Of a DNA stretch of 64,000 nucleotides, positions 10,574 to 64,000 are shown piece by piece. The first letter of the stretch is position 1. Each line of letters begins with the position of its first letter. The notes under the pieces are model-generated. The model made no database searches and was not told the DNA's origin. It saw only the letters and a list, made by a program, of their open reading frames with translations. Made by a program: the position numbers and the translations under genes. Source of the DNA: Haliotis rufescens (Eukaryota). The stretch is from NCBI RefSeq assembly GCF_023055435.1, contig NW_025964334.1, positions 46,686,001 through 46,750,000 of the forward strand, given 5' to 3'.

Positions 10574-12195
10574 AACAAGGCTTGACAAGAACTCCTGTAT
10601 ACCCTGATCCTCAGTGACCATGGTTCAACACCATGGTTCAACACAAGGCTTGACAAGAACTCCTATATTACCTGATACTCAGTGACTACACTGTTGAAGG
10701 CCATGGTTCAACACAAGGCTTGACAAGAACTCCTGTAATACCTGATCATCAGTGACTACACTGTCCAAGGCCATGGTACAACACAAGGCTTGACAAGAAC
10801 TCCTATATTACCTGATCCTCAGTGACTACACTGTCCAAGGCCATGGTACAACACAAGGCTTGACAAGAACTCCTGTAATACCTGATCCTCAGTGACTACA
10901 CTGTCCAAGGCCATGGTACAACACAAGGCTTGACAAGAACTCCTGTAATATCTGATCCTCAGTGACTACACTGTCCAAGGCCATGGTACAACACAAGGCT
11001 TGACAAGAGCTCCTGTAATACCTGATCCTCAGTGACTACACTGTCCAAGGCCATGGTACAACACAAGGCTTGACAAGAACTCCTGTAATACCTGATCCTC
11101 AGTGACTACACTGTCCAAGGCCATGGTACAACACAAGGCTTGACAAGAACTCCTATATTACCTGATACTCAGTGACTACACTGTCCAAGGCCATGGTACA
11201 ACACAAGGCTTGACAAGAACTCCTATATTACCTGATCCTCAGTGACTACACTGTCCAAGGCCATGGCACAACACAAGGCTTGACAAGAACTCCTGTAATA
11301 CCTGATCCTCAGTTACTACACTGTCCAAGGCCATGGTACAACACAAGGCTTGACAAGAACTCCTATATTACCTGATACTCAGTGACTACACTGTCCAAGG
11401 CCATGGTACAACACAAGGCTTGACAAGAACTCCTATATTACCTGATACTCAGTGACTACACTGTCCAAGGCCATGGTACAACACAAGGCTTGACAAGAAC
11501 TCCTTTATTACCTGATACTCAGTGACTACACTGTCCAAGGCCATGGTACAACACAAGGCTTGACAAGAACTCCTACATTACCTGATACTCAGTGACTACA
11601 CTGTCCAAGGCCATGGTACAACACAAGGCTTGACAAGAACTCCTATATTACCTGATACTCAGTGACTACACTGTCCAAGGCCATGGTACAACACAAGGCT
11701 TGACAAGAACTCCTATATTACCTGATACTCAGTTACTACACTGTCCAAGGCCATGGTACAACACAAGGCTTGACAAGAACTCCTTTATTACCTGATACTC
11801 AGTGACTACAATGTCCAAGGCCATGGTACAACACAAGGCTTGACAAGAACTCCTATATTACCTGATACTCAGTTACTACACTGTCCAAGGCCATGGTACA
11901 ACACAAGGCTTGACAAGAACTCCTGTAATACCTGATCCTCAGTGACTACACTGTCCAAGGCCATGGTACAACACAAGGCTTGACAAGAACTCCTTTATTA
12001 CCTGATACTCAGTGACTACACTGTCCAAGGCCATGGTACAACACAAGGCTTGACAAGAACTCCTTTATTACCTGATACTCAGTGACTACACTGTCCAAGG
12101 CCATGGTACAACACAAGGCTTGACAAGAACTCCTATATTACCTGATACTCAGTTACTACACTGTCCAAGGCCCATATACAACAGAAGCTTGACAA
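10574..12195. repeat. 70-bp tandem satellite (~23 copies)
   Basis: Unit ACACAAGGCTTGACAAGAACTCCT(G/A)TA(A/T)TACCTGAT(C/A)CTCAGTGACTACACTGTCCAAGGCCATGGTACA; period 70 (10861 vs 10931). Confidence 0.97.
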
Positions 12196-16373: not shown

Positions 16374-19300
16374 TCAATTTCCATCCAAGAAATTGAGAGC
16401 AAATCGGAACTTGCTCCCTGTCTTCATGTCCTCCTTGGTGTATGGGTACCAGAATATAAAGTTGACATCCCAAATATTGTTGAAGAGTTGGAATGCCATG
16501 CCGTTGATGTCCTTGATTGGGGTCAGTGGTAGAGGTATTGCTGAGATGGGGTCAGCATCGGTCAACACAGTCACTATGGGAGCATCAGGGGAGACAATTT
16601 CCATGCCCTGGTTGGTGGCGCTACGGTAAAATACACCCTTGTCTATAGCTAGAAGTGGAGAAAATAATTATTAGGAAAAATAGACTTTGAATGTGTGGCA
16701 CGACCCCATTGTAACACTGTGTCCAATCATGTGATTCTGTGACTAAAGATGCTCCCTCTGGTTACCTGTATGTATTGTCTACCACGGCACAGGAGTCTCA
16801 ATGACAATAATTATGTGTATGCCTTTTCACTATAGCTGGGATGATACACCAACTGGGATACGTACCATGATTCCCTTCTCACGATCCGAGACATATCAAG
16901 ATACTTGCATGTTCTCTTATCTGTTGTGTGTAAGCCATCTCTTTCATTGACTGGACAGACAAATACTTGGCACATTGACAATTTACAGTTGGCAGTGTCA
17001 CGTATGGCATGATGGATGAACATATTTACGTTTTCACTACTAATTTCCACTACTATTTCGTGTTTAGTGTGACAATTAGTGAAGCAACCATGTAAGGTAA
17101 GAATAAAAATTCATACTTAGTGTGCGACTGTGAGCGATACTCGTATTGAGAAGTAAAAAATCATGATCTCTCCGACTGTCACTCACCATGCTGTCTCTGA
17201 CTGCCGTTGAGCACGACATTGAGTGGGTCTATGATGTGACCCAGTTTATGCAGCTGCCAGCTGTAGGCCTCTTGTTTCAGCGGCTGGAACGTGAAGAACA
17301 GCGCTTCTGGCAGTCGGGTTGGAGTCTTGTCAAACCACTGAACATCGATGTGCAAACCTAGCATGGGAATGAACCAACTGCCTAATTAGTAAGTCATCCA
17401 TAATGTTTACCGTATTCGACGTAATAAGCGCCCCGCTCTAATAAGCGCCCACGGCGATATTTGCTAATATATTGGCTAGTGAACAATCCCAATTAAATAT
17501 GGGCAATTAAATTCTGGAAAAATATATCTGTCGCATATAAACATTTCAGGCTGTCAGTATAAACAACGAAATTTATCTTTCACCAAAATAATATTCTAAT
17601 AAGAGCCCCCATATTTCTAATTTTGAGAGCGCCCTGGGCACTTATTACGTCGAATATGTTATGTTGAACTGCAATTAATCTTTGCAAGAAATGGTTGTCC
17701 AGGGTTTGCACTTGTGCATCTGTTTTATGCTGGTCACATCCTGTCGAAACTCAAACCTCCATCACTTTTACAATCCTTTTGGTTTTAGTTGACACTAAAA
17801 GTCTACACTGGACAATTAAGCAATGTTCCCTCAGTTCACCAGCCCCCAAACTGGATCAGATGTGTTCATTGTTCTATCTTGGGGTTCATTTCCCTCTCTT
17901 TCTAAGCTACTCAACCCAATACACCTATACAACAGTTCGCTGAAGCTGCATGTACCTTGAGAGTTACACAGTCTCATTTGTCTGCCTTGCGATGACAGTG
18001 AAAGAGCTGTTTCCAACTGTTTCCTTTATATACAGATATTCAATTTGCAGAACTCAAACATTTGGCTGTGTGCTCTGACAGTATATCGGATAAAAGGAAT
18101 AAGTGCCACAGCACTGTAGCTCACCTGGATATGTAGTCATTAGTTAACAGAATAAAACTAAAAAAAAAGGCTGTCAGCATTGATATTAAAATATTTTCTA
18201 CAAATATTATGAGAACTAATAAACCCACGAAAGTCATTTTGAGAGAATACAAGAGCATGGTAATACCAAGTAAAAAACCCATAAATGTTGAGCCCAACTA
18301 CCACATATGGATGAACCAAATTTCATAACATTTTGAACAAAAAATGGCTTGACAATGGCCATGAAGTCATTTCATCTGTCAGTATGGTTAAAGTGTAAAT
18401 CAATTATTTAAAAAAATTTAAATATTGCAAAAAACACTGAAGATGTGCTGAGACCCACCACCTTCTACACACATACCATTCTCATTGAACATCCCCAACA
18501 GGTTGTCTGAAGGGAATCATTGGTGGGGAAAAGCATGTGTAGTTCATTTAGAGATTCATTGGTCAAACGGTTTCCGAGGTAATGGACACACAGGCCATAA
18601 CATAAGCTCACATAACTTTAAGTCAGCTAAGCTGAAAAGGTAGATGCAAGTTAAATAGGGAGAAGCGAATCTCTATATCCTGATGAAGTACTGTCTCTTG
18701 TCCTCTATCTATTACCCAAGCAGGTCTCACCTGGAGGTAGCGCAAAATCCTCTGTCACATAGGACACCCACACTTCTGACGGGGCTCCATAATACTCGAC
18801 AGCCTTCCCGCCAGACATCCGAATATGGGCATGGAAAGAACAAGCACTTCCTAGGGGAAAAAACACAATATCTTGACCCCAGTTCAACTCCAAAGCATTT
18901 GCACCCAGTTTGAACGTTCGATGGGTGCACAGTGTAGAGTTATCCCCCTTTGACAATAATTGCAGAGAGAACTCCACTTTACATATACTGAACATGGTAC
19001 TAAAGATCATCTGGATTTGAAGTCAACAGTTTCAAATGTCAACAAAAACTAACACTGGTACAATTTGTATTCATTTTTTTCAGCATAGATACTGAGGACT
19101 AAAACAATAATGATTTGAACAAAATATGATGTCTCCATAGGGGGAAACATACATTCCAAACTTCACTTCCCTCAGTTTGGCTGTTCGTCAGCATGCCATG
19201 GCAGCCATATTGAAAAATGAATTTGGGCCATTTGGGGTGTGATCATTGGTGAGCACAAGCTTGTGAAGTCTCGATCAGCTCCATTCATCCAGAGGTTACT

Positions 19301-22060
19301 GAGGAGATGATGTTTGTGATATATATGTTAACAACATCTACCGTATGCATTGTGTTTACGACATTCGTATCCTGGAGAGTGACCTCCCCTGAATAAACGT
19401 TTTCACACCACATGACATTCATCATGTTAGTCGCATATGTTACAATGTTTACAGTTACAGGGCTACCGGGTGGCCACACTGAAATTAAATTGTGATGCCT
19501 TGAACTAACTTGAACTCGAAATCTAGAAAGGTTAAGGACGCTGCTGATGCCAGATAATGGACGACTTATGACCTGAAAGGCCATGAGAGCAAACAAGTTA
19601 ACGATTAGTGAGGACATGATCCATTGATGTGACTAAGTGAGTAAGTGCACATACAAGAGTCATTCTTCAAAATGCAAGCAGTGCTCAGACTTTACCATTT
19701 TGTTTACAACATGACACGTGACATCCAGAGAGTCTAGTGCTGCTGAACTGTTTGGTGACACACTTATAATGTGACACACTAATAATGTGACACACTTATA
19801 ATGTGACATACTTATAATGTGACACTAATAATGTGACACAATAATAAAGTGTCACACTAATAATGTGACACACTAATAATGTGACACACTCATAATGTGA
19901 CAAACTAATAATGTGACACACTAATAATTTGATACACTTATAATGTGATACACTAATAATGTGACACACTAAGAATGTGACACAATAATAATGTGACACA
20001 CTAATAATTTGATACACTTATAATGTGATACATTCAAATGTGACACACTTATAATGTGACACACTTATAATGTGACAAACTAATAATGTGACACACTAAT
20101 AATGTGACACACTAATAATTTGATACACTTATAATTTGATACACTAATAATGTGACACACTAAGAATGTGACACAATAATAATGTGACACACTAATAATT
20201 TGATACACTTATAATGTGATACATTCAAATGTGACACAATAATAATGTGACACACTAATAATGTGACACAATAATAAAGTGACCCACTAATAATGTGATA
20301 CACTAATAATGCAAACAGTAGAAGCTTTTGTTAACGTGCGCCATGTACATGTTCAGAAGCTTGCAGAACCAGAAGAAAAACAGTTTGCATCTATAACTTA
20401 ATGAACCAGAAGTGATGAAGTGGCTTAACTGAGCTCTGTAACAGTATGGATTACATATATATGGCAATCTTTAACTGGTCACCAAAATGAAATAATCCAA
20501 TTGTTAACATTGTGGCTACATCAGTACTTGATTCTGATTAGTCAATCAGAGGTTGTCAATCACAATGTACCCCCTTTGATTGAAACAGCTATTTGACAGC
20601 CTCATCACCGTGGAAGGTAATATTAATAGAATAGTACTTTTTTCAGTCATTGTCGGTAGGCATACTTAAATAATTATATCAACAATTATAGGTTACAAAA
20701 GACAATATTTAAAGGATGTGTGGCTATACATTTTGTGCAGAAAATATCTATTTTAAGTTTTGAGGAGAACAGAGAGCTTGGTATTTGGTGCTTTTCTATA
20801 TACAACTGTGATGTCATATCTTTTGCGTCACAATGTGCGATATGACGTTATAACGGTGATGTGTGGTGTACAACGAAAGCTTTGCAACGATTGCTTTGTT
20901 TTCTTTACATGCTTCAGGCGTTCCCACCTCATGTTAGCTTACTAAGTTGCTGTGCTTATATGCTTTCAATGGCTATCATGTGTTCGAGTGAAGTATTACC
21001 ATGTAAACAAACTGCTTGAGTATATAAAAAGCCATAGTTTGTTTAAAGGCTGTTGTCGGTGATTCCGTAATTCAGATCGACAACCCACTCAAAACACTGC
21101 GCGTTCGGTTCCAAATTCAATTTAGCGTGCTTAAATCTACATGTAACCTAGCTCTACATCGAAAATACAGTATGTTAACCTCCATTCTACCATGTCCACT
21201 CAAATCCCATCAACAGAATTTCACAAAAGTTATTTGGGGTAGCACCTACTTTGCCAGTCCCTGTCTTTATGTAGCATATGGAGTTTAGTTCACTTAGAAA
21301 ACTGACAAATGGGAGCGTGATAATAGGTTTGGAGACAAAGTAAGGAAATGTACAACTTTATGGATAAAAACTGCTGGTTTGTTGCATATAGCGACGTTAT
21401 CAAGCTGGAGCTAGAGCACTGAGTTATCGCAATATGCAACAAATCAGAAGTTGTTATCCATAAAGTCGTACATTTTCTTATTTACTCACCAATTTCAAGA
21501 AAGCCAATGAAACAGTTATATAGATAAGGTGATGAAAAACTGTCATTATTCTGCTTTTTCTTGCCAAATATCTAAAAATCATAAAAACAACCATAGAGCA
21601 GTTTTTGGATTATCGCGTCTTATTAGTTTTTTCATATGTTGAACAGTTTGACGAGTCAGCGTTTGATATCGACCAATGCATGATCGCAAAAAGGGAAACA
21701 TCTTGGTATTTTCAGTGTTAATAAAAACATCAATGTCTGTGGGTATAACATGAATAATATGCACCTCCTTCTACACAGAGGTTGTATCAGACAAAACAAT
21801 ACAGATGCACATATACATTTCCAGTCTCAGTATGGGGTCCCATAAGATTTATTACAGATTGGTCCAGGGATGCGGGATGAGGGATGCTTATAGGAGTTGG
21901 CTATAATGGGGTGAGAGCTATGAAGGAGTTAAGGGGGTTTCACCCCTTCTCTTAACAATGTGGAATACAAAAGGGAGTTAGCAGGGCCAGCAATCGGTAA
22001 AGTACATCTCTCACATTATTTTAATCACAAATATTCCCAATTCAATTGACACCCTTCTGA

Positions 22061-22126
<66 letters not shown>

Positions 22127-25100
22127 CTGGTAGCTACCTGCAATCCTGTAGACATCTATCAGCTGGGTCGGCCACACCCGGCTCTCTGCGTCTGAGTTGT
22201 TGGTCATGTTGGGCTTTCCAATGCCCAGCCATGAGACACCGGGCTGGTACGTCGCGAAGAAATTGTCAAAGTCTGTCTGGTTGTATGTCTGATACACCAG
22301 CTGCCCCAGTGGGTTTGTCTTGCTGGCCCAGTTCAACTGTGGATCACATGTAAACATACATGAGGAAACTCAGTCATTTAAGGGTATCAATATCAGCCAA
22401 ATCTGACATACGGGATGAGCTTATTATTTCCAAAGTTCATTATTCACATGGGTAATAACGATGATTGCCACTCATGTCTTTAAAATTGTTTTCACTATAT
22501 CTGACATTTTGCTCCATCAAACTTGTCATCAGGTGATATACAAGTCTTGGGAAAGGAGTTTTTGTTTATGAATATAATGATTTGTAGTAAGTTTAATCTT
22601 CCTACCATACCAGATAATGTGTTCATTAATTAAAACTGAAGTCTTCTTAAATATTGATATTTGAAATCAGGAAGCACCATATTAGAATTGTTGGCCTGCA
22701 CCCCCAGAATCAGCTCTAAGGACTGGGAATGAAAATTCTATCTGTCAGAGAACCAATTTCTAAAATTCTTTCACAGGTAACAGATACATTTTTCTGACAT
22801 AAACAAGATATAAACAAGATATAAAAACAAGATATAAACAATACTTCTAGTTTGTATGACAACACATCCCTGTGTGTATCTAGTAATGGAATGGTTATCA
22901 AGGTACATCATGGCTCCCTATCTCACTACAACAGCACCATACACTCACCTTGGTATATGGGTCAGACAGTGTGCTGAGCGCCCCATCAGCCCTGAACCCA
23001 AACTTGTAGCCGTTCTCACAACTCTGTATAGATGTAGGGTCAGACAGCTTGCTGTAGCCTGCAGAAACAACATCACATACCGGTACTGAACCCAGAACAT
23101 GAAGCCGTTCTCACAACTCTGTATAGATGTAGGGTCAGACAGCTTGCTGTAGCCTGCAGAAACAACATCACATACCGGTACTGAACCCAGAACACGAAGC
23201 CGTTCTCACAAATCTGTATAGATGTAGGGTCAGACAGCTTGCTGTAGCCTGCAGAAACAACATCACATACCGGTACTGAACCCAGAACATGAAGCCGTTC
23301 TCACAACTCTGTATAGATGTAGGGTCAGACAGCTTGCTGTAGCCTGCAGAAACAACATCACATACCGGTACTGAACCCAGAACACGAAGCCGTTCTCACA
23401 AATCTGTATAGATGTAGGGTCAGACAGCTTGATGTAGCCTGCAGAAACAACATCACATACCGGTACTGAACCCAGAACATGAAGCCGTTCTCACAACTCT
23501 GTATAGATGTAGGGTCAGACAGCTTGATGTAGCCTGCAGAAACAACATCACATACCGGTACTGAACCCAGAACATGAAGCCGTTCTCACAACTCTGTATA
23601 GATGTAGGGTCAGACAGCTTGATGTAGCCTGCAGAAACAACATCACATACCGGTACTGAACCCAGAACATGAAGCCGTTCTCACAACTCTGTATAGATGT
23701 AGGGTCAGACAGCTTGCTGTAGTCTGCAGAAACAACATCACATACCGGTACTGAACCCAGAACACGAAGCCGTTCTCACAACTCTGTATAGATGTAGGGT
23801 CAGACAGCTTGCTGTAGCCTGCAGAAACAACATCACATACCGGTACTGAACCCAGAACACGAAGCCGTTCTCACAACTCTGTATAGATGTAGGGTCAGAC
23901 AGCTTGATGTAGCCTGCAGAAACAACATCACATACCGGTACTGAACCCAGAACACGAAGCCGTTCTCACAGCTTTAGTTTAATTGTGGTCACCCACACTA
24001 TGATTTATACAAGCCCATCAGTACACCACGTAAACACAGAGGCCTCCGCAAGTAGCACAGGCTGAGAAGTCAGCTACTGGAAGGTATTGTTCTGAGGGAG
24101 TACGTTGTTGTTGTCTCCCTGCTTACTCTCCCTACTATCATTATACCAACCAGAATGTCACTATACCTGCCAGACTGTCACTATACCTGCAGACTGTCAT
24201 TATACCTGCCAGATTGTCACTATACCTGCCAGACTGTGACAATACCTGCCAGATTGTCACTATACCTGCCAGATTGTCACTATACCTGCCAGATTGTCAC
24301 TATACCTGCAGACTGTCACTATACCTGCCAGACTGTGACAATACCTGCCACATTGTCATTATACCTGCAGACTGTCATTATACCTGCCAGATTGTCACTA
24401 TACCTGCCAGACTGTGACAATACCTGCCAGACTGTCACTATACCTGCCAGATTGTCACTATACCTGCCAGATTGTCACTATACCTGCCAGACTGTGACAA
24501 TACCTGCCAGATTGTCACTATACCTGCAGACTGTCATTATACCTGCCAGATTGTCACTATACCTGCCAGACTGTGACAATACCTGCCAGACTGTCACTAT
24601 ACCTGCCAGACTGTCACTATACCTGCAGACTGTCATTATACCTGCCAGATTGTCACTATACCTGCCAGACTGTGACAATACCTGCCAGATTGTCACTATA
24701 CCTGCCAGATTGTCACTATACCTGCCAGATTGTCACTATACCTGCAGATTGTCATTATACCTGCCAGACAGTCGCTATACCTGCAGCCTGTCATTATACC
24801 TGCCAGATTGTTACTATACCTGCCAGACTGTGACAATACCTGCCAGACTGTCACTATACCTGCCAGATTGTCACTATACCTGCCAGACTGTCACTATACC
24901 TGCCAGATTGTCACTATACCTGCCAGACTGTCACTATACCTGCCAGACTGTCACTATACCTGCCAGACTGTCACTATACCTGCCGGACTGTCACTATACC
25001 TGCCGGACTGTCACTATACCTGCCAGACTGTCACTATACCTGCCAGATTGGGCTTGCTGGCCTTCAACATGTCCCATTCCGACTTCACCTCAGCCATGAG

Positions 25101-28100
25101 AGGGTTCACATCGAGGGCGTCCAGCGCCGTGTACGCAAACTGTCGCTGCTCCACCCATGACGAGATGCCGTCCAGGAAATGCTGGTCTGAAGGAGAAGGA
25201 CATATCACCATGACAACTGTGTGGTATGGACTTCATTCCACCCCTGTCATCTCTGATCATAAACCATTTTGTTGTACAACTGAAATGAACATTGTTAGAA
25301 AATAACAGATCAGAACACTGTGAACCTGTACATCTTAAAGGCACCATAGCTGGAATCATCCATACTGTGTTTCAGCTTCATACACCTTCTAGTTTCAGAT
25401 GAGATGTTTAAAATGCAAAAGTTAATGACAGATGGACAAGTGTTCGCATTTCGTGCCCTTTGACAAAATGTGACAGTCCTTCACTATATCATATCACATT
25501 ATCAATGTTGGCCTGAGTTTTGAAATGTGAACAGTTATTTGTCAAAAAGCATAAAGGTGATTTGTTTTTAAGTCCTGAAATTTGGTATAAAACATAACCC
25601 TCATGAACATTGATAAAATGATGTCTAGAGTCTACACATCCAAACTCGAAAGGTTCTACTTTGATTGATGGAAACTATCTTGTGATTTTCATGGTAACTG
25701 GTTGCATTATTACCTTTGAGCTTCATGGCATTAATAAATCGGACATTTGTCCAGTTGAACTGGTCAAAGACACTACTAAGTCCACACGTGTGTTCCCCCA
25801 TCTTGAGGAGGAACCTGCTGGAGTTGTAGAAGGCGGGGTCAGACAGCGAACACACTGCAAGAGAGGAGAGTCGCACTGATATAGTTCAAATGTTTAGTTT
25901 CCAGTGCAGCTCATGTCCTTTGCTGTCAGCATTGCTATTGAAGTCGGACAAAAGTATTAAAGGATGATTGAAAAGACTACAAATTGAGCATTTTTCTTAC
26001 ATAATGTCATTCAAACATGAATTTATACCAAATCTGCATAATTGAATTTTGAAAATAATTTGTAATAATTGTAATTATGCTCCTAAACCTACAACACTTT
26101 AGCCATGCCCACTTGTATGCATATTTATCTTTTTAGCAGTAGGGTTTATGTGGCTGTGATGTTATACCAGACATTCTGCTTTGTGTTGATCATTCGTGTT
26201 TACGGTATCGACTGGAAAGTGAAGAAAAGTGCCATATTTTGAATGGAGTTGCAGTGACAATATGCTGTATTGGGTGCACTTCCAGTGCTACAAATACTTT
26301 TGGCCTTCATTTTCATGAATTTCCCTGCGATCTGCCAAAACGTAAGCTATGGCTGGCATATTGTCAACGTGCTGATGTCAAACTCAAAGACATAAGCAAA
26401 TACAGCATGTGATGCTCCTTACATTTCTCAAAGAAGAATTATGAAGGGGATCCAGAGTTCATGGCACAATATGGCTACATGAAAGCTTAACCCAAGCTTT
26501 TTAAGGATGCTGCACAGGACATTTCCCTGGCTATCAACGGCACGAGCAGGAATAAGGTCACGAACAGTGCTAGGTTCACCAAGAGGGGGCATTTCAGAAG
26601 CGATAACCGTTAGAACAAATAGAAGTGAGTGAAGTAGATATGATCTTGACAGACAATATTAAGTTTTATGATATTACTTGCTCGCTTGAACCTCTCACAG
26701 TTTGCATTTCCTGAGTTTGTTGGTGTAGATCGATTTTACTGTACTTTTTCAAGGATGTCTTAGGTTTTGGCAGTGGGCTTGTCATTCATTAGAGATTGGG
26801 CATTCCTTTTACATACACTAGTTGCAAGGTTGTTTGGTTCTTAAATAAATAGAACTGTCATAATTGTTTATGATTTATTTTTTGTAAAATTAATTAAAAT
26901 GTGAAATAAAATCATGAAGTCTAAATTAATTATTCCCGGTTTTAGGATTTGAAAGGAGCATATGATAGTTTTAAAGCAACATTTCGACAGGCGATTATGC
27001 TTGTATGAGGCGACTAACGGGATCAGGTGGTCAGACTCGCTGACTTGTTTGATGCATGTCATCGTATCCCAATTGTGTGTATCAATGCTCATGATGTCAA
27101 TCACTGGATTGTCTGGTCCAGACTCAATTATTTACAGACCGCTGTCATACAGCTGTAATATTGCTGAGTGCGGCGTTAACCAACAAACAAACAAACTTCA
27201 ATATCCATTAATAGCAATATAAAGTATGTGTAGTAACTTTTTAAAAAATCCTTTAACAAATTGAAACAAGTAACTTAATATCCGCTATGTATCTAAATCT
27301 GTAACAATGTATTGTTGTAGGAAACTGTGTGAAATAGACAACAGCTAAATACAAACTCTGAGCCTTACATATACCACTAAAAGAAAGTTAATGACCTATT
27401 CAAGGATTAAAAGTCTCTCTATTCAAGGATAAAAACTCATCCTATTCAAGGATTAAAAGTCTCTCTATTCAAGGATTAAAAGTCTCTCTATTCAAGGATA
27501 AAAAGTCATCCTATTCAAGGATTAAAAGTCTCTCTATTCAAGGATAAAAAGTCATCCTATTCAAGGATTAAAAGTCTCTCTATTCAAGGATAAAAAGTCA
27601 TCCTATTCAAGATTAAAAGTCTCTCTATTCAAGGATAAAAAGTCATCCAATTCAAGGAATAAAAGTCTCTCTATTCAAGGATAAAAAGTCATCCTATTCA
27701 AGGATTAAAAGTCTCTCTATTCAAGGATAAAAGTCATCCTATTCAAGGATTAAAAGTCTCTCTATTCAAGGATAAAAAAAGTCATCCTATTCAAGGATTA
27801 AAAGTCTCTCTATTCAAGGATAACAAGTCATCCTATTCAAGGATTATAATTCTCCCAATACAAGGATTATGAGACATAACATTCTTCTCAGGAACCTTAC
27901 CTTTCCCTGCCAGACATTTTGTACGCGCACGGAGGAAAGCTCTCATTTCCGCTACTTTCCGTGGATCAGACCCAGCTCCCTGTATCCAGGTGTCTCCGAT
28001 CTCCTTGGTAACCACAGGAAGTTGGGCCTTGACACTCTGTGCGGCCTCCACAAATGCCTCAAAAGTAGAACCCTGGACTTCTGCATTTGGGAAGATTGCC

Positions 28101-31100
28101 CTCGAAATCTCAAAGTTGGATAACACTTCCTGGAAAAAAAATAAAACATTGCAACATCATGTGCAAAGCTGAACAGTCCACTGTGCTGGTGCTGAACCTT
28201 CTTGGTGACAATTGCAAACACAGCAGGCTTTGAATGTGTTTATGAGTAAGTGTGTAGTACCATCATCATACCAAGTTCATATTATAACAATCACAATGGT
28301 TTACAGATCTTTTCTTGAACAAAAAGCAGGAAAAAGATCAAAATATATATAAATTAATAATTTTGAAAGCTTGTTTATTTTTATAGTGTTAAACAGAAAT
28401 TATTGTTGTTTGGGTGAAAGAAGAACATTTTTCTTTACTGAATTTCAATAAACAATATGATGGGAATAAAAATAGACTATTCTCTTTGTTCCAAATCCAC
28501 ACCTTGTGGAACCATCAGTCAAGTAATTAAAGTAAAACAACCAGTGAAATTCACCTTCACAGTTTCCGGTGGTCCCGAGTTGTCAGTGCGGAAAGCAAAG
28601 CACATGGCGTCCGCCAGCCCGGGGAATATGACACAGTTATCAGCCGACAGCCCACCGGGGTTGGCGGGGTTTGGACCTGGGTTCTGTGGGTATCCGACTG
28701 AAACAGACTCTTCAGTTGTAACGTGAAAATGAAAGAAATGAGCACTGAGGGTGAAGACAAAGGGTGTTAACAAGCTAATAACTGTACACTGGAAACAGTC
28801 CTTGTTTCCAAATTTACTTAATTGTTTTAATCGGAGTTCCAACACAAACACAAGGAAAAAAGTGAGCAGGGCTCACTAATACCGCGACATCGACTCCAAC
28901 ATAGTTCTATGTTCAAAACACACACAAAAAAGAAAAAGAATTCTCAGAAAATCCACTTATCAACATCAAACTGTGAACTGCATCTCTTCTATTTGTATGG
29001 AAACTGTTCCCTAAATTTAAAAAGAATCCATACAGTAGTTTTCAAGTTTTATTAAAAAGTAAAAGCATTCTTAGCAAAAAAATGAAAAATAGCTGTATTT
29101 TTATTTTTCATAAAATACACATATCAAAATCCATGTACTAGTTCTCAAGATACAGGTCACACAAATGATTGTAAAAATATACAAATATTGAAATCAACCT
29201 CTGCACTGCACCTTCCCTATTGGCATAGATAGTGTTCAGGAAGTTTGAAAAAAATCTATGCAGTAGTTTTCAAGATATAGGTCGCACACAAAAAATGTCA
29301 TCGGAAGGATGGACGGACGGATGGGTGGATGGACAGAGGTCCTTGGTATAACTATGTATCCCCACCCTTTTAGGTCGAGGGTATAACAAAACAGGACTGA
29401 GACAATAATCAAAATGCATAGATTGATTCAAGGTAACAATAAAAAATAAACAAAAATGCGTAACATATATGTGATGTCTGATGAAAATTAAATGCGCAAA
29501 GCAAAATTATCACATTTGATACTGGTGTTGAAAGAATAGGACTCACAAGGGTTCCACATTCCAATGACACTTGCGCCCTGGAACTCCCATCGGAAGATCT
29601 TGGGGACAGCCGGGGGAGCTGACATGGGGTTGACCCCCACCGATACAGCAGCTATACCATGCTGAACGAGCAGAGGCAGCAAGGCTTGAGTCATACCTGC
29701 AAATACAGAGTGAGGTCAGAAACAGTAAGATCATCAAACACAGAGTGAGGTCTGCAAATACAGAGTCAGGTCAGAAACAGTCCAGTCATCAAACACAGAG
29801 TGAGGTCTGCAAATACAGAGTGAGGTCTGCAACCTGAGTGAGGTCTGTTAATACAGAGTGAGGTCTGCAAACACAGAGTGAGGTCAGAAACAGTGAGGTC
29901 ATCAAACACAGAGTGAGGTCTGCAAACACAGAGTGAGGTCTGCAAACACAGAGTGAGGTCAGAAACAGTGAGGTCATCAAACACAGAGTGAGGTCATCAA
30001 GACAGAGTGAGGTCTGCAAATACAGAGTGAGGTCTGCAAACACAGAGTGACGTCAACAAATACAGAATGAGGTCTGCAAAATACAGAATGAGGTCTGCAA
30101 ACACAGAGTGAGGTCTGCAAACACAGAGTGAGGTCTGCAAATACAGAGTGAGGTCAGAAACAGTGAGGTCATCAAACAGAGTGAGGTCTTCAAATACAGA
30201 GTGAGGTCTGCAACACAGAGTGTGGTCAACAAATACAGAGTGAGGTCTGCAAACACGAAGTAAGTTCTGCGACGCAGAGTATTTTGGAGGGCTACCAACT
30301 ACCTGTCATTTCTCTGACAGACAATGGGAACCTCCTGACAATGCAAAGTGTTTAGTGTTAGGATGTTATAGATTTGGGTGGGGAGGGTGTGTTGTGTGGT
30401 AGGTTTGCCATTTTAGAAGATAACCACCCATCTGACTCATCCCTGACTGACTGTTCAGAATAGAAGACAACCACGCACCCGGTACATCCCTCTGACTGAC
30501 TGTGGGGAACTTCCTGACAATGCCTAGACGTTTATCCAGGTCCTGTCCTAGCTGAAGCCCAAACTCCACCATAGCAGTGTCCAGCATCTCAAACTGCATG
30601 TTCATCGGTCCAGCATGCCAGCTGATGTCCCCCAGCTGAGCAGCAGCCACAAAATCTGACACAGCGTCTTCACCTGGGCACTGAAAGGAAGGCTATGACT
30701 CATGACAACTGGGGGTTTACAACTGTCATGATGACAATGGTGTGGCAGACACAAGTGTTAACATACAGTTTTGTTGTACATATGTTTTATCTATTTGAGG
30801 TCTGTAATATTATTTTAAGTTGTTAGTAAAGTAGGTTCTTAGTTCAATATCTATTGTGGGCTTCTGGATTAGTTTACTTATAATGTAGAGGGTGGTTGGG
30901 TTGGTCCTAGACTGTCTTACAGACCCGATACAAATATATATGAAATACAGCCCATGCAAGTCTATGGTGTTTGGCAAGTCTAGACTACTGCAGTATCTGA
31001 AAATGAAGAGAGTCACTGGGCTCCCTTTTATTACATTTTTATTAAGATAACTGAACAACTGTTTTTCTGTACAATATGTTCATTTCAGAGACTAGATGTT

Positions 31101-33918
31101 AGTCTAGGGTTGGTCCATGTTTGTATCATTGTTTCTTCTCTTGTTCTAACCCAAGCCTTGATTTCATTGGCTTGTTCAAACTGTGCACTTTTCATCCATC
31201 TTGCACTAGACACTACACCATTTCAGAAGTCAGTCAACAATTTGGACTTGGACGCATCTTGGATAAATAATTCGATTGAAACCTAATTTTATGCATAATT
31301 CTCCCTGATAGAGGCAAACATCTCCATGAAACTAAAGACCCCAATACCCTCTGACAATTGATGGCAATGGGATCAACCTCATACACTAGTCAACAAGGGT
31401 TGGACACAAGGTCAAAGGTACCAACAGTTCCTCATGTTCACATTAAAGCACAAGGATGTGAGTTATCAAAGCATATCCAGGGCAAGTATTCAGTTCCTAT
31501 AGGACCAGCACATGCATATTCCTCACTCACCTGAATATTAGCGGTACCTGCCCCTGCTACTGGGCCTCTGATGATGTGCAAACAAAACTCACACTTAAAA
31601 AAAGGGTTTCCTTGTTCTGTTAGTTTCTTTAACAAGATAGCTATGAAACAACATTAACTGGCTTACAAGTCCCTTCAATGTACAGACTAGCATACTGACT
31701 CAAGCACATGTATCCCCATTCACTATTGGTTTAACTTCTAGCATGATTGGTCTTGATGTGACTCCCAATAAAATCTTGATACCATTCAGTTTTCCAAATC
31801 ATTGTTGCAGAAAACTAGAGATGTTAGCCTTAGGAATGTACCTTAAATACTTCTGGCAACACAGTTGCTTTAAACTACTCTATTGTCAAGTGAAATGATT
31901 GAAAAAAAAAGAAATTTTAACAATGCCCAGCTTTGTCGAACTGTCAGAGTTCGAGTTAAGACAATATATAGCCATGGTTTAAATGGTTGAGTGAATTTGG
32001 TTTTACCCTGACATTTCAGATATCATGGCACTTCAGTTTGATGTAAGAAAGTCCAAAGTGATGCAGGTGTCAGACATTTACCTTACTGACATCAGGTAAC
32101 ATACTCTATGGTGCTGACAAGCCGGGGATCAGGGATTAGAATCATGGTCACAGGCTCCCGGCATGCCTCACACAACAACTGTGATTTGAAGCCTTGCATG
32201 ACTGGGAACCCATGTCCCCTCCATGGTCCAAGTTTGTTTGTTGTTTAACGCCACACTCAGCAATATTCCAGCTATATGACGGCAGCCTGTAAATAATCGA
32301 GTCCGGACCAGACAATCAAGTGATTGATATCATGAGCATTGATCCACGCAATTGGGATATGATGACATCCATCATCCAATTTAACAAGCCTGACCAACTG
32401 ATCACGTTAGTCGCCTCTTACAAGAAGCATGGGTTACTGAAGACCTATCCTAATCCGGATCTTCACAGGCCCCATGGTCAAAGAAGGCCTACACATTACA
32501 TCATCATACACAATGTTAACCCTGCACTCAGTGTACATGTGCCATCTTCAAATATTACAGTTACCAAGATATGTAAATGTGCAGTGATATCACAGCATGT
32601 CAGATTCATGAGGGAGGGCCCGAAGTGATGCAGGTGTCAGTCATTTACCTTACTGACATCAGGTAACATCCACTATGGTGCTGACAAGCCGGGGATCAGG
32701 GATTTGAATCATGGTCACAGGTTCCCGGCATGCCTCACACAACAACTGTGATTTGAAGCCTTGCATGACTGGGAACCCATGTCCCCTCCATGGTCCAAGT
32801 TTGTTTGTTGTTTAACGCCACACTCAGCAATATTCCAGCTATATGACGGCAGCCTGTAAATAATCGAGTCTCGACCAGACAATCCAGTGATTGATATCAT
32901 GAGCATTGATCCACGAGTACATGTATGATGCTGACAAATCAAGAAACATCATCAGGGTAAACATGAAATTCGAATTCATGATAACAGGTTTCTGGCACAC
33001 CTAACTCTGCACAGCAATTGTGGGCACAATTGTCGAAGCAATAGATGATCTATTCATGGCATGATGAAAAGTTTAAAAAAATTAATTTAGTACATTCATC
33101 TACGGCATCCTTCATAGATATAAAATAAGAAGATAAATACCAAAAGTGTTATAGGGGTTGGGGAGTTGGGGAATTAATGTGTGGGGGCCACTTACCTGCA
33201 GTACAATTCCCGACAGGTTCAAGTTGGGGGGACAGTCCAGATAGAGACTGACCAGCCAGGGGTGGGTGGTGTACACTAGTCTCTCCAAATATCCCTCTGA
33301 ACGTAGTTGCCGTGATACATTGACTGCTCGGGGAAAATATACTGTGAAGTACCGGTTGATGACATTGTTGACAAAACCCAGTGTGGGGAAAATACCGTTG
33401 TAACCAACATCTGAAGTAACAGACATTTCATTAATCATTTTACAGGTTTCCACAATGTTGTATTGATCCATCAAATACAAAATCTGCATACATGCAAAAT
33501 CACAATTGTCAATGTCACAAATCAAAAGAGATTAAAAACTGTGTACAATGTGCTTGTTCTTGGCATTCAACAAGTTTTGGTTTTGTCTGGTAAAACTGGT
33601 CTTAAGAACAACTCAAAGTACATGGAGATTGTCAGCATGAACTAGCTTTCACTGTTGTCATGATGGTTGCTATCGAGTCTTCTAGGGGGACCAGTTGTTC
33701 TTGTCCAGAGGACAGATATAATTCTAATTTTTTTAAAACCCTAGGTTAGATTCAGTTTATGACAGTTACTTGTACCCATACGTACCAAGATGGTTCATGA
33801 ATAGAAGGTGAAGTCTCTTGACATGTGTAGTGTTAGTTGATTGGTCAGCTGTGTCCAGGCTGGCGGTACACGCCACACCGACCACGCTCCCCCACACCAC
33901 ACCAAGCACCTGCAACAT
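16374..33918 (-). CDS. DUF5054-like putative glycoside hydrolase (GH38-like N-terminal barrel), ~744 aa, 13 coding exons, probable signal peptide
   Basis: Exons (-): 33918-33786, 33410-33196, 30680-30479, 29696-29547, 28697-28555, 28129-27901, 25854-25714, 25186-25040, 23058-22949, 22336-22138, 18850-18731, 17357-17187, 16648-16374. All GT-AG, phases match, 2235 nt open. Motifs FMNHLDVGY, YTTHPWL, ISWHAGP, SQRDVPG, SVGVNP, TDNSGP, LPVVTKEIGDTWIQG.GSDP, EHTCG, KTPTRLPEA, LFNNIWDVNF. N-terminus MLQVLGVVWGSVVGVACTA. Confidence 0.88.
17410..17660. mobile_element. pogo/Tc1-type MITE with CCGTATTCGACGTAATA TIR; longer copy at 44254-44597
   Basis: TA|CCGTATTCGACGTAATAAGCGCCC ... GGGCACTTATTACGTCGAATATG; the two copies are collinear. 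Confidence 0.85.
19755..20310. repeat. 16-bp minisatellite AATGTGACACACTAAT (~34 copies), intron 10
   Basis: Direct inspection. Confidence 0.95.
21345..21480. mobile_element. Palindromic Penelope-like inverted terminal repeat remnant
   Basis: CTTTATGGATAAAAACT...TTGTTGCATAT / ATATGCAACAA...AGTTGTTATCCATAAAG; same arm motif as 54580 and 57688. Confidence 0.5.
22063..22124. repeat. (TA)n microsatellite ~14 nt from the exon 10 donor
   Basis: Direct inspection. Confidence 0.97.
23008..23970. repeat. 95-bp tandem array (10 copies) containing the exon 9 splice acceptor and exon start
   Basis: CTGCAG at 23059, 23154, 23249 ... 23914; period 95. Confidence 0.97.
24141..25048. repeat. 19-20-bp tandem array (~45 copies) containing the exon 8 splice donor
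   Basis: Minus-strand unit CTGGCAG|GTATAGTGACA(G/A)T; first unit is the real exon end AAT CTG GCA G|GTATAG. Confidence 0.97.
27394..27850. repeat. 23-bp dimeric (46-bp higher-order) minisatellite in intron 6
   Basis: Alternating TATTCAAGGATTAAAAGTCTCTC / TATTCAAGGATAAAAAGTCATCC. Confidence 0.95.
28848..29388 (-). mobile_element. Degenerate Helentron-like non-autonomous element
   Basis: Core repeats ending GTAGTTTTCAAG; (GGAC/GGAT)n microsatellite; terminal TATCCCCC...GAGGGTATA inverted repeat; GTGAGC..GCTCAC hairpin at the other end. Confidence 0.5.
29697..30255. repeat. ~20-bp tandem array containing the exon 4 splice acceptor
   Basis: Minus-strand unit ACCTCACTCTGT(A/G)TTTGCAG; real site CCTCACTCTGTATTTGCAG|GTATGA. 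Confidence 0.93.
30908..31106. mobile_element. ~200-bp non-autonomous DNA transposon, TAGACT..AGTCTA termini, 10-bp TSD (AcademH-like)
   Basis: TSD GGGTTGGTCC at 30898-30907 and 31107-31116; copies at 47389-47596 and 58787-58975. Confidence 0.75.
32057..32915. repeat. Local ~290-bp duplication of a composite of two SINE fragments (32057-32350 / 32623-32915)
   Basis: Both copies run AAGTGATGCAGGTGTCAG...CCCCTCCATGGTCCAAGTTTGTTTG...GATCCACG. Confidence 0.85.
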
Positions 33919-35069
33919 CACCACCTTGTTAAAGTTGTTATTTTTGTAGCATTAACAGAAATAACAGAAACAGTATATGTACCTCAGACAAGTCATGCTT
34001 TATATAATCTGAGAATAGTTTATTGTAGAAATTAGATTATGTGGGCCCAATTAAACCACTCAATTAAATCACATATCAGCCAATAAACTTTTGTCATGCA
34101 CACCAAAATATGTTTGTTTTGGAAGACGCGTGTGGCGTGTGACTTCAGCACTTTCACTTTGAGTTTGACACTTATAAATAGATCTACTTTCTGCAAATAT
34201 TATGATTTTTTCTCCCTCGGAAAATAACTAAATGTACCTTAGAAAATTGATATTGGCAACAAAATCGTATTCATTTTACTTGTCCTCTAACAGCTTTTTA
34301 AGATTAATGCATGCAGGCCTGAGTCTTGTATGTAAAATAGTTTACTTTTCTATTGCCTATCATATTCTGTTTAATAACAAATACTTTTGACGCTCCTTTT
34401 AACATTAGATACTCGTTGATTCCGCATAGCTGGATATCATAATTAAATGATGCACTGCAACACCGCTTGTAGTTGTACATTCCCTGTAAATACACATGAC
34501 AACATATACTTACTGCAATAAACAACCACTTAGTTTGCATGTTCAGCAGCGAGCGTCCTCCCCTCTTTATTTTGTACACAAAGTGTCATGTGCTCGCTTC
34601 CTTATCAGTGACCAATGAAAACACAAGAGAAATCCATATCCGGCTCCATACAGCCCAGTTCATACCTGACACTGCATAGAGTTTTAAAAGCACCTTCACA
34701 TGTTTCCGTGCTCGTCGATAGCAGTATTTAATATTTAGTTCCATAGTTACTTGTTCGGTCTAAAGATGAAAGCTCTTGTTGCTATAATAAACTTTCTGGA
34801 AATACAACACAGGATCTAACAATAATAATATGAGGCCTCTATTTCTCAACACATTAGTTATCATCGCGTGTTAATTCCGATTCTGAATTTGGTTTGGCTG
34901 TTGAGGTGTATTCCATTATGAATTTCAGATCAATTTGGCAATGCCTTCTGAGTACTGCATATGAAACAACAATCAAAAACACAAATAGTTAATTAAAAAA
35001 ACTAGAAGTGAAGCCAGTATACAACGTTAACTTCACTGATCATACCAGCTAGGCAAGCTAAAATCCCAA

Positions 35070-35795
35070 AGCGGCAGACGTGGGAGAACGTTATGCACGC
35101 AACTGTATTGTGGAGAGGAATCGATTTGGAGGTGGCTCTGTGATGATTTGGGGTGGGATAACAGCACGGCACCGAACCCCTTTGGTGGCTGTTCAGGGCA
35201 ATCTCACCGGTGTTGGCTACAGAGATCAGATTCTGAGGCCTGTGGTCATTCCTTTCCTGCAACGTCATGGTCCGGGATTGACATTTCAACAGGACAACGC
35301 TCGTCCTCACACGGCTAGGGTCGCAATGGATTTCCTTCACAATAACAATGTCATGTTACTGCCATGGCCTGCAGTTTCTCGAGATCTCTCCCCAATAGAG
35401 CATGTGTGGGATGAAATGGAGCGCCGTCTGCGTCGTCTTCCACATCCTCCAGAGAACGTCCGTGACTTGGCACAGGATTTGAGGAGGGTATGGCAGGCCA
35501 TTCCCCAGGCCTTCCATGCCCATTTGGTGGACTCCATGCGTCGCCGATGCACTGCTGTGATTCACGCAAAGGGTGGTCATACCCGTTATTGAATTTGTGA
35601 CTTTGTCGTATGACCCCCTACTCCATTTTGATCTTCTGACGTCATCGTAACAGATGTTGTTCAGGTCCCGTTGACATTTTCTTATGGTCCGATCATTCAG
35701 CTGCTACAGCGTCTGCATCATTTTGTTCTTGCTGTGTTGTATTTCAATCCAGAATATATTTTCTCCGTGCACAGTTTCTTTATGTGGCTAGTATA
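35070..35795 (+). mobile_element. Tc1 transposase 3' half (DD34E) with right end
   Basis: FGGGSVMIWGGI, FQQDNARPH, WPAVSRDLSPIEHVW, AVIHAKGGHTRY; 5' half absent. Confidence 0.93.
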
Positions 35796-36179
35796 TGTTA
35801 CTCCGATTAGATACCTCGATCACTGTGTGTTGGTGGACACCTGATAGGTCTCGTAAGTTCACGAGGTCAGCTCATAAAATTAGGACGAAGCAGCACCAAT
35901 CTCATTAAAATCAGATCTTAGTTCTCGCTAAACAAAGATCTGAGGACATCCCATTCGGGGTCATGTCAGAACGACCTTTCATCCAACCAATCATTACGAC
36001 ATTACGAGCACTTCACCCAACGTATCTGAATATGAGGTATAAACTCATACCTATATTGTTATAGTGAAAATCTACCACTAGACCTACACCTACAGTTGTG
36101 TTTCGAACATGTAAACAACAGTAGACGAATAGCTGTTTTTTTCATTTTCATGCCACAACAATTCTACAGCAAGTGAACA

Positions 36180-37160
36180 GTGAAAGCATGCCACGACTGC
36201 CCGGGCCCATCGCAACAACGCCATCGGCCGACTGCAAACAAGATAATCATCTTCAACTGCAGCCAGGTTCTTCCACGAAGCACCAAGCACTATTACAAGA
36301 ATTCGGAACCGTTATCAGACCGTTATCAGACACACGGGACAACACGTGACCACCTCAGTTCCGGTTGACCACATATCACTACTAAAGCAAAGGAAATTTT
36401 CTTACGGCTTTGTCATTCACGTGAAAGAACTACCGCAGCCACCTCTACAAATACGGCAATACCAGGACTGCCTAGGATTTCAGCCCAGACAGTGAGGAAC
36501 CGTTTGCGCGCTGAAGTTATTCGCGCTAGACGACCAGTTCGAGGTGTCATTTTGACGGACCTGCATCGTCGGCTGCGACGTCAATGGTGTCAAGGTCACA
36601 GAGCATGGTTAAGTAACGAGTCACGTTTTATGCTCCGCCGTCCGGATGGTAGACGTCGTGTTAACAGGCGTCGCGGGAAGCGTTATGCACGAAACTGCAT
36701 ACAGGAAGAGGACAGTGGTGGTAGTGTAATGTGGGCTGCCATCTCCCACACTGGTAGAATAGACCTGGTGCAAGTTTAAACGACGAATTTAACGGCACGA
36801 CGTTACACAAAGTGAAATTCTTCGGCCACACGTCCTTCCCATTATGCAACAAGATAACGTCATTTTCCAACAAGACAACGCCCGACCTCACACGGCAACA
36901 CTGACAAAAGCCTCTTTCGGGAATCACAACTTCCAGGTCCTGCCATGGCCCTCCAGACTTAAACCTAATCGAACTTTTATGGGACAAACTGCGACTGCGG
37001 GGCAAGCAGGCAACAGCCACATAACCTCCGACAGTCGGCACAAGCACTGCAGGCAGAGTGGATGAACATTCCCCAAGCCACAATTCGGGATCTGATTGCT
37101 TCCATGGGACGACGATGCCAGTCAGTCTTGAACTCTAATGGTAGCCATACAAGATATCGA
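36180..37160 (+). mobile_element. Degenerate Tc1 transposase (near full length, frameshifted)
   Basis: VRNRLRAEVIRARRP, SNESRF, GGSVMWAAIS, FQQDNARPH, VLPWPS, NGSHTRY. Confidence 0.9.
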
Positions 37161-38554
37161 AAACAGATGACCTTCATCTTGAACATGTATTGTTCCATGT
37201 GTACCATATGGAACCTGGGTCAATGACATTGATGTGCGCCAATTTTGAGGATCGGGGACCATGTGTAATCATTCATATGATACATAAAATGCCCTCAGCC
37301 CACATCCTAGTTGTTTCGAGCGCTTTGCCGCCTCACATTTACGGTATTTAGTTTGGTGCCTACACTTGTATTTGGTCTAAGATTCGCCCCTGACGTATCT
37401 CTTTGTGTGGTTAGTTGTTGCAGGGCGCCAGGCCCCGTGCCTTGTTTGTTATAGGTTTGAGAAAACGGGGGCATGGGCCATGGGGAACCTTTGCGGACAC
37501 AACTTTGCACAGCACTACAGACGTTTGTGTTTGTTGCAGATAATGATCGGAGGGAGAACATCACATGGTCATGAGGAAACGTCAACCGTCAAAGACGTGT
37601 ATTTTAATCAACAAATGAATGATTGAAAATGCACGTGAGATGCATCAGTGCACGGCGCCTGCTGCCTTATTTGTTATGGTAGGACAGACGAACTAATTTT
37701 AAAAGTAACTTTATCTTTGTCTCACATGTGTATGATAATATGCGTACGTACGAAATAAATAATTATATAAATATATTTAAAAACATTCCTAACTGTAGAT
37801 TAGTACACTAAACATGTTTATGTTATTCGACAACAGTCATAACATGGAGCCCTGTCCTGTCCTTAACTAGTTTGTCTGCCTTGCCCCATACAGCATTTCG
37901 CTGCAGTGAAACGTTGACCCATTTTCTTGAAGCGGGTCTGTCTGTCGAGAGGAACGGAGACAGGCCTACAGCATATCGCTATGCGCGAAACGTCTACCTG
38001 TCAAGGAGGTCGGGCCTATAGAATATTGCTATGTCTGCGGGAAACATTGACCCAGTTTCCTTGTAGGATATATTAGCACCTTTGGACAGTGTTGAATAAT
38101 TGACGTGTCAGGCTACAGGAGTAAACATATTACCATTAGGGAGGTAACTCTCAAAGAGAAGTATGATTCATGTATAAAAAATAACGAACTCCACATGCTA
38201 CCACAGCTACCACATGCAAATTACCATTTGTTTCTTCTTCTAGGCTACACATGTATGTTTTATGACAGTATAGGTACTTGCATCAATAGGTAGGTACGCT
38301 ACAACATTTCTTTGCGCCGTGTTGATCCTCTGGATCAAAGTTATCTTGCATGTTCAGTGGAAGACTCCCCCAATGGCCCATCACGCTGGTCCAGAGGATA
38401 TATACAGTGTGACCTAAAGGTGTTATGGTGTGACGTGTTGAGCATAGTTTGCACTTTCCCCTTTTGTTCTGAGGCAGGCAGTTCAAGGTGTTGGCTTTGG
38501 GCATAGGTGGCACGGGTAGACACAGGTTTCAAATGGTGAAGACAATGCATGGCA

Positions 38555-39460
38555 GTCTCCAATCACTGATCGCCACGATTTGTCAAACATTCATTCGCTC
38601 GACGGGGCATACTGCGTATCAGTTTCCCAATGGCGATTTGAGGGAGGCTGTTCCACTCAACCTGCAGCACCTGGCCTAGTTCAGCCAACATGGTCGGCGG
38701 CCTATGACGTTGACGCACACGTCTCCCTGTCATATCCCAGACGTGTTCAATGGGTGGAAGGTCTGATCTCATTGCTGGCCCTGGCATGCTATTGATGTGC
38801 TGCTGGAGATGAGCACTTGACGATTCGTGCAAGGTGTACACGGGCGTTGACGTCCTGAAAGATAAATCGTCGACCCACACGCCTTACAAACGAGACAACA
38901 AAGGGTGTCAGTATGTTGTCCCAGTAGTACTGTCCAGTGACCCTTTCCTGCCCAATATGGAGTGGGGTTCGCTCAGTCATAGTGATGCCACCCCACACCA
39001 TAACCGATCTGCCGCCAAATCTGTCACGAGGTCTCACGTTGACATTGGCTTGACGTTCATTGATATCTGTTGGCAATATAACGAGTTGTAAGGTGCGGCA
39101 TATAACGTAGCCGTCGAGCATGGGGATGAGCTGCATGTAGACGATTTCAAATCGTCAGACCCGCAATTCGTACTTCACTCGCCTGATGAAAGTTTGCAGC
39201 AATTCGATTCCCCGTTTGGACTCGATTTCGTAGAGCGTGGTTACGGATCAATCGATCTAGTACTCTTGACGTTGACCTTGGACGCCCTGAATGGAGACGG
39301 GGTCCATCGTCAACATTTGGGGTTTGTTGGTACCTGTTCCATAGTCTGCTAATCGTATACTGTGAAACATTGAACGCATTGGTCACGGCACGCTGACTTC
39401 TGCCAGTTTCCAGCATGCCAATATCCCGCAGGCGCTACGCGCGCTTCAGACGCCACATCG
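38555..39460 (-). mobile_element. Degenerate Tc1 transposase
   Basis: MLETGRSQRAV HTH; GRPRSTS; FGGRSVMVWGGI; FQDVNARVH; SDLPPIEHVWD. Confidence 0.9.
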
Positions 39461-62894: not shown

Positions 62895-64000
62895 ACAAGT
62901 CAGTATCTCCATGTGCAATGATGACTGCCGTGCAACGTCGATACATGGATTGGATGAGGCGGTTGGTGAAGGCCATAGGCACCTGAGCCCACACTCTCAG
63001 GAACGCCTGACAGTTCAGCTGCAGTTGTCGGCCTTGGTCGGTCGTCCCACAGGTGCTCAATGGGATTTAAATCGGGACTGATGCCATTCTGCTGGAGAAA
63101 GTCTCTTGTTGCTCTCACAGTGTGGGCACGGGCGTTATAATGCTGAAACTTTTGGTTGCAGCGACGCGCCAAATGAGGTATGGCGTGTGGTCTCAAGACT
63201 TGATCAATGTACCGAGCTGCTGTGACACCATTGCCTCTCCCTGGACCGATGTTCTGGAAGATTACAGGGCCGACCCTCTGTGCAAGACCAATTCCACCTC
63301 ACACCATGATGCTTGGACCACCCCACGAGTCTCTCTCAACAACACAAGCATCCGGATAACGTTCCACACGGCGTCGCCGGACTTTCTCTTTGCCATCTGC
63401 TGTTGAGATACAGTAACGGCTCTCGTCTGAGAAGAGGACTCTTCTCCACTGCAGGTGGCTCCAATGTTGGTGCTGTGTTGACCAGTGAAGACGGTCCCGG
63501 CGATGACGTGGTGTCAGAATGGGCCCTCTGTGTGGCCTGTGACAGTGGAGGTGTCTGCTCGTCAATCGTCGACGCACGGTGTCAGCACTAATGTGCCGCT
63601 GGTGTGTCCCCATTGTCTGTCGAGCAGTTTCCGCAGCAGTAACAAAGCGATCTTGAAGATGCTGTCGCACAATCTGACAATCCTGATGTCGGGTGGTGAC
63701 CCTTGGTCTTCCACTACGTGGTCGGTCATCTGTAGTGTTGGTGGTCTGGTACCGTTACTGGAGCCTGTATATGGTCCTTACGTGGACATAAAATGCATTG
63801 GCTACTTGCCGGGCGTTTTGTCCAGCTTGAAATTGTCGAAGGGCTTGGTGTCGCTGATTTCTTGTCAATCTTGGCATGTGGTAGCAATTCAATAACGAAT
63901 GATTGTTATACGATCTGGGTGGATTTTTATAGGGCAAGAAATGGGAGAACGCGTGTGCATATCAATTTGCACGGAACTCACGTGCATCGGATCACCATGG
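62895..64000 (-). mobile_element. Degenerate Tc1 element, near full-length transposase; 5' end runs off window
   Basis: MPRLTRNQRHQAL HTH; ISADTVRRRL; WRRVLFSDESRY; WGGPSIMV; FQHYNARAH; SPDLNPIEHLWD. Confidence 0.92.

Follow-up and report, generated by a model that had tools for sequence, protein, structure and literature searches.

A 95-bp array across the intron 9/exon 10 border of an abalone DUF5054 gene as a probable "mirage" minisatellite

The window analyzed here, a stretch of 64,000 nucleotides of Haliotis rufescens DNA, contains on its minus strand a gene (16374..34540) with 14 coding exons, which tblastn comparisons identify as encoding a DUF5054 (PF16477) protein of about 750 amino acids. 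Its exon 4 shows a 99% match to an uncharacterised DUF5054 protein of Haliotis cracherodii. DUF5054 was also the sole match in a Pfam search with 12 single-exon frames, and a weak one (E 0.062), so that the family name of the gene rests on its homologues. Elsewhere in the window we noted a minus-strand BTB-domain gene (53832-55723; PF00651, E 4.5e-7) and broken transposase frames on both strands (35062-39434 and 62896-63754), which, from their motifs, we take to be Tc1/mariner-like. Additional tandem arrays include a 70-bp array of 23 copies (10575-12195), whose minus-strand unit holds CAG|GTAATA; a 23-bp array (27396-27869) starting about 30 nt past the exon 7 donor; and a 29-bp array (47673-48603) that ends about 30 nt before the likely acceptor of a plus-strand DUF1349 gene and has a unit resembling the pyrimidine tract of this acceptor.

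Intron 9 of the DUF5054 gene is 1981 nt long, and about 92% of it is accounted for by two arrays, one with a 20-bp unit at the donor and one with a 95-bp unit at the acceptor. The term "mirage" minisatellite, used below for such border-spanning arrays, goes back to Canestro et al. 2002, as cited in Ebner et al. 2010 (PMC3087553). The exon downstream of the 95-bp array, which had been named exon 9 in the original prediction, is coding exon 10 of 14 according to tblastn. The relevant features are as follows:

29697..30270, minus strand: 20-bp-based array with copies of the exon 5 acceptor, ending TTTGCAG| (TRF)
25040..25186, minus strand: coding exon 9 (tblastn, RNA joint)
24134..25047, minus strand: donor mirage with a 20-bp unit in 46 copies, each with the exon 9 donor CAG|GTATAG (TRF)
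23971..24133, minus strand: unique spacer in intron 9, 163 nt, its array-side end weakly like the 95-bp unit (anchored score reached in 20/2000 shuffles)
23018..23967, minus strand: ten 95-bp units, each consisting of a segment A, the acceptor and the exon start (TRF and sequence reading)
23081..23153, minus strand: 73-nt pseudo-exon of the last decoy, its donor-like site 22 nt short of the real acceptor; another eight follow upstream in 95-nt steps, up to 23913
22949..23058, minus strand: coding exon 10, 110 nt, with the real acceptor at 23058 and the strong donor AAG|GTGAGT (tblastn to P0001; RNA joints E9-E10 and E10-E11)

The tenfold 95-bp array at the acceptor, as originally described, was confirmed both by TRF (period 95, 10.3 copies, 98% matches, span 22992-23970) and by reading it unit by unit. 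All ten units are exactly 95 nt long, arranged head to tail, and span the intron 9/exon 10 border. They carry ten copies of the acceptor TTTCTGCAG|, with exon-like sequence beginning at 23913, 23818 and so on to 23153 and 23058; the last of these, at 23058, is the real acceptor and the other nine are decoys. Downstream of each decoy come 51 nt that agree with the exon start except for 0-2 differences, then 22 nt, and then the donor-like motif CCG|GTATGT, which thus lies 73 nt from the decoy acceptor and 22 nt before the next acceptor, the latter distance not being mentioned in the original prediction. The units diverge from one another by 1.7% on average, with four variable columns, and two pairs of these columns display all four gametes, indicating that a simple series of duplications is insufficient and that exchange or repeat mutation is needed. 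A DNA search of the same genome with exon 10 plus one unit recovered only this locus (9 matches); such a search does not show rarity, and nothing in it suggests a dispersed element.

The bearing of this array on splicing was assessed using four of the ten RNA-type runs (X15, X17, X18 and X19), whose RNA status is a software guess; three raw-read RNA runs, being small-RNA libraries, were left out. In all four RNA contig sets exon 9 is joined at the real acceptor of exon 10, with single contigs running through exons 9-10-11 in X17 and X18, and an unbroken contig from exon 9 through exon 10 in X19. Thus, the dominant splicing is unaffected in these sets, being unbroken through exon 10 in three of the four. 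The clean splicing in the RNA donors D and E, whose own DNA may or may not carry the array, may be uninformative in this regard. X15, from organism A, contains in addition an array contig at a depth of 2.95, whereas the spliced pieces reach 7.35-7.82; intron 10 is not covered. Ten-copy pre-mRNA or DNA fits this contig, and so does some use of upstream acceptors.

It had originally been proposed that each upstream copy is a potential 73-nt cassette exon, and that a ladder of +73n or +95n products might be found. The 73-nt spacing to a donor-like site is indeed present, but the site itself is weak: with a scoring matrix derived from 132 donors of this genome, it falls in the 11th percentile, compared to the 95th for the exon 10 donor and the 13th for the exon 9 donor. 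The intron between adjacent copies would be only 22 nt, to our knowledge too short for a metazoan intron, and hence the array lacks the spliceable introns of a cassette array; a minimum-intron figure specific to molluscs was not found in the open-access literature. From the same spacing it would follow that a downstream intron fits behind eight of the decoys only, and that a transcript could include four of them at most. Given these 22-nt introns between neighbours and the eight usable decoys, a ladder is not expected in its simple form. The joint that a cassette would create by skipping 22 nt was absent from all four RNA contig sets, although contigs miss rare variants. Furthermore, all six aberrant forms that we modelled, with one or three cassettes or with extensions of +95 x 1, 2, 3 and 9, contain a premature stop. 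Transcripts with premature stops are depleted under the established rules of NMD, and the aberrant forms would accordingly be depleted. The ladder is therefore unsupported, with the reservation that contigs could miss its rare forms.

These same observations bear on a functional account, under which the array is a tuning knob coupled to NMD: decoys or non-adjacent 73-nt cassettes would be used rarely, their products degraded, and the length of the array would set the output of the gene. The near-identity of the decoys to the real acceptor (68th percentile), the comparable strength of the pseudo-donor and the used exon 9 donor (11th versus 13th percentile), the premature stops that would hide all products from steady-state RNA, and the array contig in the X15 RNA are all in keeping with such a role. 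Against it stand the absence of the 22-nt skip joint in the four RNA contig sets, with three contigs unbroken through exon 10, and the absence of the array from organism B, which implies that it is not conserved; moreover, the available accounts of amphioxus mirages and of the pseudo-sites of human F7 report them as silent (PMC3087553, PMC1557585). We consider the regulatory role quite improbable, and the array is probably not a new splicing device.

A second aspect of the array concerns its intronic segment A, which resembles the continuation of exon 10, here termed A':

23941..23970, minus strand: first intronic A segment, where the array has its left edge; organism B has just one copy (loose end at 23100 in X13)
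22992..23020, minus strand: A', exon 10 nt 39-67, ancestral coding sequence from which the 30-nt repeat derives (alignable to a conserved C..G..F.F stretch of other molluscs)

A (23115-23086) matches A' (23020-22992) in 27 of 30 columns. The direction of copying can be read from A', which encodes a stretch that aligns across molluscs and is hence the source of A. In organisms C and E, the exon allele 23007 T>A, which places a T on the minus strand and encodes Phe as in H. asinina, raises the match to 28/30, and this sequence comparison suggests that A may have been copied from an older exon allele. In run X13, from organism B, the junction is represented by one 1258-nt contig at flank depth, with the order spacer, single A, acceptor and exon, and with no repeat loop; its A differs by one substitution and a 2-nt deletion. 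This contig indicates that A exists without the array. Thus, the part of the original prediction that placed an older duplication before the amplification stands, as the intronic A predates the array; as to its nature, a full round of exon-start duplication and a short templated copy are both compatible with the data. The single copy of organism B could be either the ancestral state or a secondary collapse. Two further proposals were rejected. One was a full-length unit inside the spacer, for which the local alignment score was reached by 691/2000 shuffles and the anchored score was marginal (20/2000). The other was a derivation of the first half of exon 10 from a duplicate of its second half (KLSDP / TLSDP), which is countered by the alignment of each half to other molluscs and by the weakness of the residual DNA similarity (65/3000).

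Four of the 14 DNA runs (X8, X11, X13 and X14) and the four RNA-type runs were sampled for the state of this junction in related organisms, a comparison proposed with the original prediction. Among these, X14 from organism C and both X8 and X11 from organism A contain the 95-bp repeat as a loop. Relative to its flanks, the loop has a depth of about 1.8 in X14, 2.6 in X8 and 6 in X11, versus ten units in the window; contig depth is a hint here and not a copy number. X11 shares two of the unit variants of the window, at 23053 and near 23100. The unit of organism C equals that of the window at 95/95 nt, even though the exon alleles of C are those of E rather than those of the window. One contig of organism C (X14 record 10) skips the 163-nt spacer, its 20-bp donor array running directly into position 23076 at GGTAT(A)GTGA words common to both; this allele, if a deletion, is possibly an intron built solely of splice-site repeats. 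The acceptor of exon 11 has been amplified separately:

22292..22359, minus strand: single-copy counterpart of a 68-bp unit that covers the acceptor of exon 11 (22336) and is tandem in organisms C and E

The tandem form of this 68-bp unit is seen in X14 records 5 and 6 and X19 record 17, and the single copy in the window, X13, X8 and X11. Microhomology at the junction of the 68-bp array is only about 2 nt, suggesting that long seed repeats help but are not required. Hence, copy number at the exon 10 junction appears to vary among the sampled organisms and a neighbouring junction carries an independent array, much as predicted. In X15, X13 and X14, a 55-nt piece of exon 11 (22265-22319) also matches, with 6-7 differences, a different contig of higher abundance, which is probably from a paralog.

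The repeat loops in the independent runs X8, X11 and X14, and the two unit variants of the window at 23053 and near 23100 in X11, argue against an assembly artefact, for which nothing specific speaks beyond the fact that long-read assemblies can misjudge copy number. We regard such an artefact as extremely improbable; the exact count of ten units does rest on one assembly. A more serious competitor is a single old array in continuous turnover by expansion, contraction and edge erosion, with no two separate rounds, in which A and the degenerate spacer would represent the left edge and organism B would have collapsed. The weak likeness to the unit of the spacer (20/2000) and of the 3' part of the exon (65/3000) could be understood in this manner, as could the identity of the organism C unit to that of the window at 95/95 nt despite the exon alleles shared by C and E, and edge exclusion is described as typical of such arrays in the available text on amphioxus (PMC3087553). 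What this account accommodates poorly is the disparity between A, about 93% like its source, and the far more diverged spacer, which is hard to obtain from one decaying array. Continuous turnover thus appears possible, though doubtful, as a replacement for the ordered scheme given below.

To place the locus in its genomic context, we surveyed 196 of the exon-level hits from four family searches, leaving out P450s without introns as well as the majority of both the near-identical tandem paralogs and the hits containing several internal stops. The resulting 129 stretches (1.29 Mb) contain 210 minisatellite arrays, which make up 12.8% of the sequence. A first enrichment test with a wide bin (-150 to -3), covering 306/392 junctions, yielded 8 observed versus 7.4 expected and thus no excess. 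The set was enlarged by 203 exons by means of tblastn, with 644/798 junctions passing a motif filter, and the narrower bin was chosen after the first test. In this set 14/644 junctions (about 2%) are spanned by an array, versus 4.9 +/- 2.2 at random positions (0/2000 shuffles), two of the 14 being the same junction in paralogs. An array edge lies within 60 nt of 13 more junctions, against 5.3 expected, and no array reaches more than 60 nt into an exon, against 7.3 expected. Under a stricter null, in which each array is placed as a single unit within its own intron as it was before expansion, 12/54 intronic arrays were observed as mirages versus 6.9 +/- 2.2 (116/5000). Mirages therefore occur about 1.7 to 3 times as often as expected by chance, the factor varying with the null; under the stricter one, much of the pattern can be put down to short ancestral introns, and a modest excess remains. 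Border-spanning arrays are a common feature of this genome, for which the present locus is ordinary. A DUF5054 paralog matching P0005, for example, has a 79-bp donor mirage of 10.5 copies at exon 3 (L010:6614-7421). In a DUF5054 paralog (L017-L020; G000:C594, about 12334700-12366700), a 32-kb intron consists of a single 41-bp array with about 774 copies, which begins about 50 nt away from an exon, and most introns of the paralog have arrays near exons.

The array combines a head-to-tail arrangement, a unit placed over an exon-intron boundary of an expressed gene, a duplicated splice signal, unaffected dominant splicing, and concerted evolution with the edges excluded. It is a case of a known repeat class, which the original prediction had not recognised as such. 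We hold with considerable confidence that it is a mirage minisatellite in which the intron 9/exon 10 border was amplified, likely by slippage or unequal exchange between A and its source 95 nt downstream, the dominant mRNA using only the last acceptor. The age order of the copies is consistent with a scheme that would begin with the copying of exon nt 39-67 into the end of the intron. The A/A' direct repeat that then bracketed the acceptor may have seeded its duplication. The patterns of variants among the units are those expected if ongoing recombination or conversion homogenises and resizes the array, leaving out its coding edge. The prevalence of the last acceptor in the dominant RNA might be caused by exon definition, as this acceptor is the sole one paired with a strong donor. 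Any decoy use would lead to premature stops and likely removal by NMD, and the array would be tolerated as near-neutral.

A much broader proposal, to which we give little credence, is that splice junctions in abalone are hot spots of mutation, switching between single and multiple copies on the timescale of species. Short relics of exon sequence would re-seed amplification, arrays would arise preferentially at exon edges, and introns might come to consist entirely of copied donors and acceptors, as hinted at by the contig of organism C. Array length would then tune expression via NMD-coupled decoy use, with the alleles forming a natural series on how a single 3' splice site is selected from ten identical copies.

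The closest known parallel is the amphioxus globin gene BflGb6, whose array, in the available text of Ebner et al. 2010 (PMC3087553), has a unit formed by the 3' end of an intron and the exon start, repeats the AG signal, differs in length from allele to allele, evolves in concert except at its edges, and leaves regular splicing undisturbed. The abalone array shares with it the border-spanning anatomy, the splice silence and the edge exclusion. It differs in its mollusc host, its 95-bp unit with a donor-like site in each copy, the presence of mirages at both ends of one intron, and the occurrence, in a related organism, of an allele that has just one copy and already carries the 30-nt seed repeat. 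Somatic instability has reportedly been seen at amphioxus Adh3. No reports of mirages from abalone or other molluscs were found in the open-access literature; the available part of a paper on H. discus hannai describes a polymorphic intronic minisatellite and mentions no junction-spanning. As far as the available text of De Grassi and Ciccarelli 2009 (PMC2812944) goes, the internal tandem repeats at exon-intron boundaries in human segmental duplications are likewise minisatellite expansions at such boundaries, but many of them lead to alternative transcripts or new introns, neither of which was seen for the abalone array.

At the DUF5054 gene, alleles with a single copy, with a few and with ten, one that lacks the spacer, and a separate array at the following exon make up a natural series that shows the seeding and turnover of mirages. 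For genome annotation, such arrays yield false partial exons. In human F7, a 37-bp VNTR of intron 7 spans the exon-intron boundary, and its identical pseudo-sites are silent according to the available text of Borensztajn et al. 2006 (PMC1557585). In the abalone gene, this VNTR has its direct counterpart in the 20-bp donor array of intron 9. The F7 case lies on the donor side and is explained there by 5'-to-3' scanning (PMC1557585, as far as available), whereas an acceptor array must pick the last copy, presumably by exon definition. The 95-bp array thus offers a ready test of how the last acceptor is chosen among many identical ones, as the counterpart of the F7 donor case.
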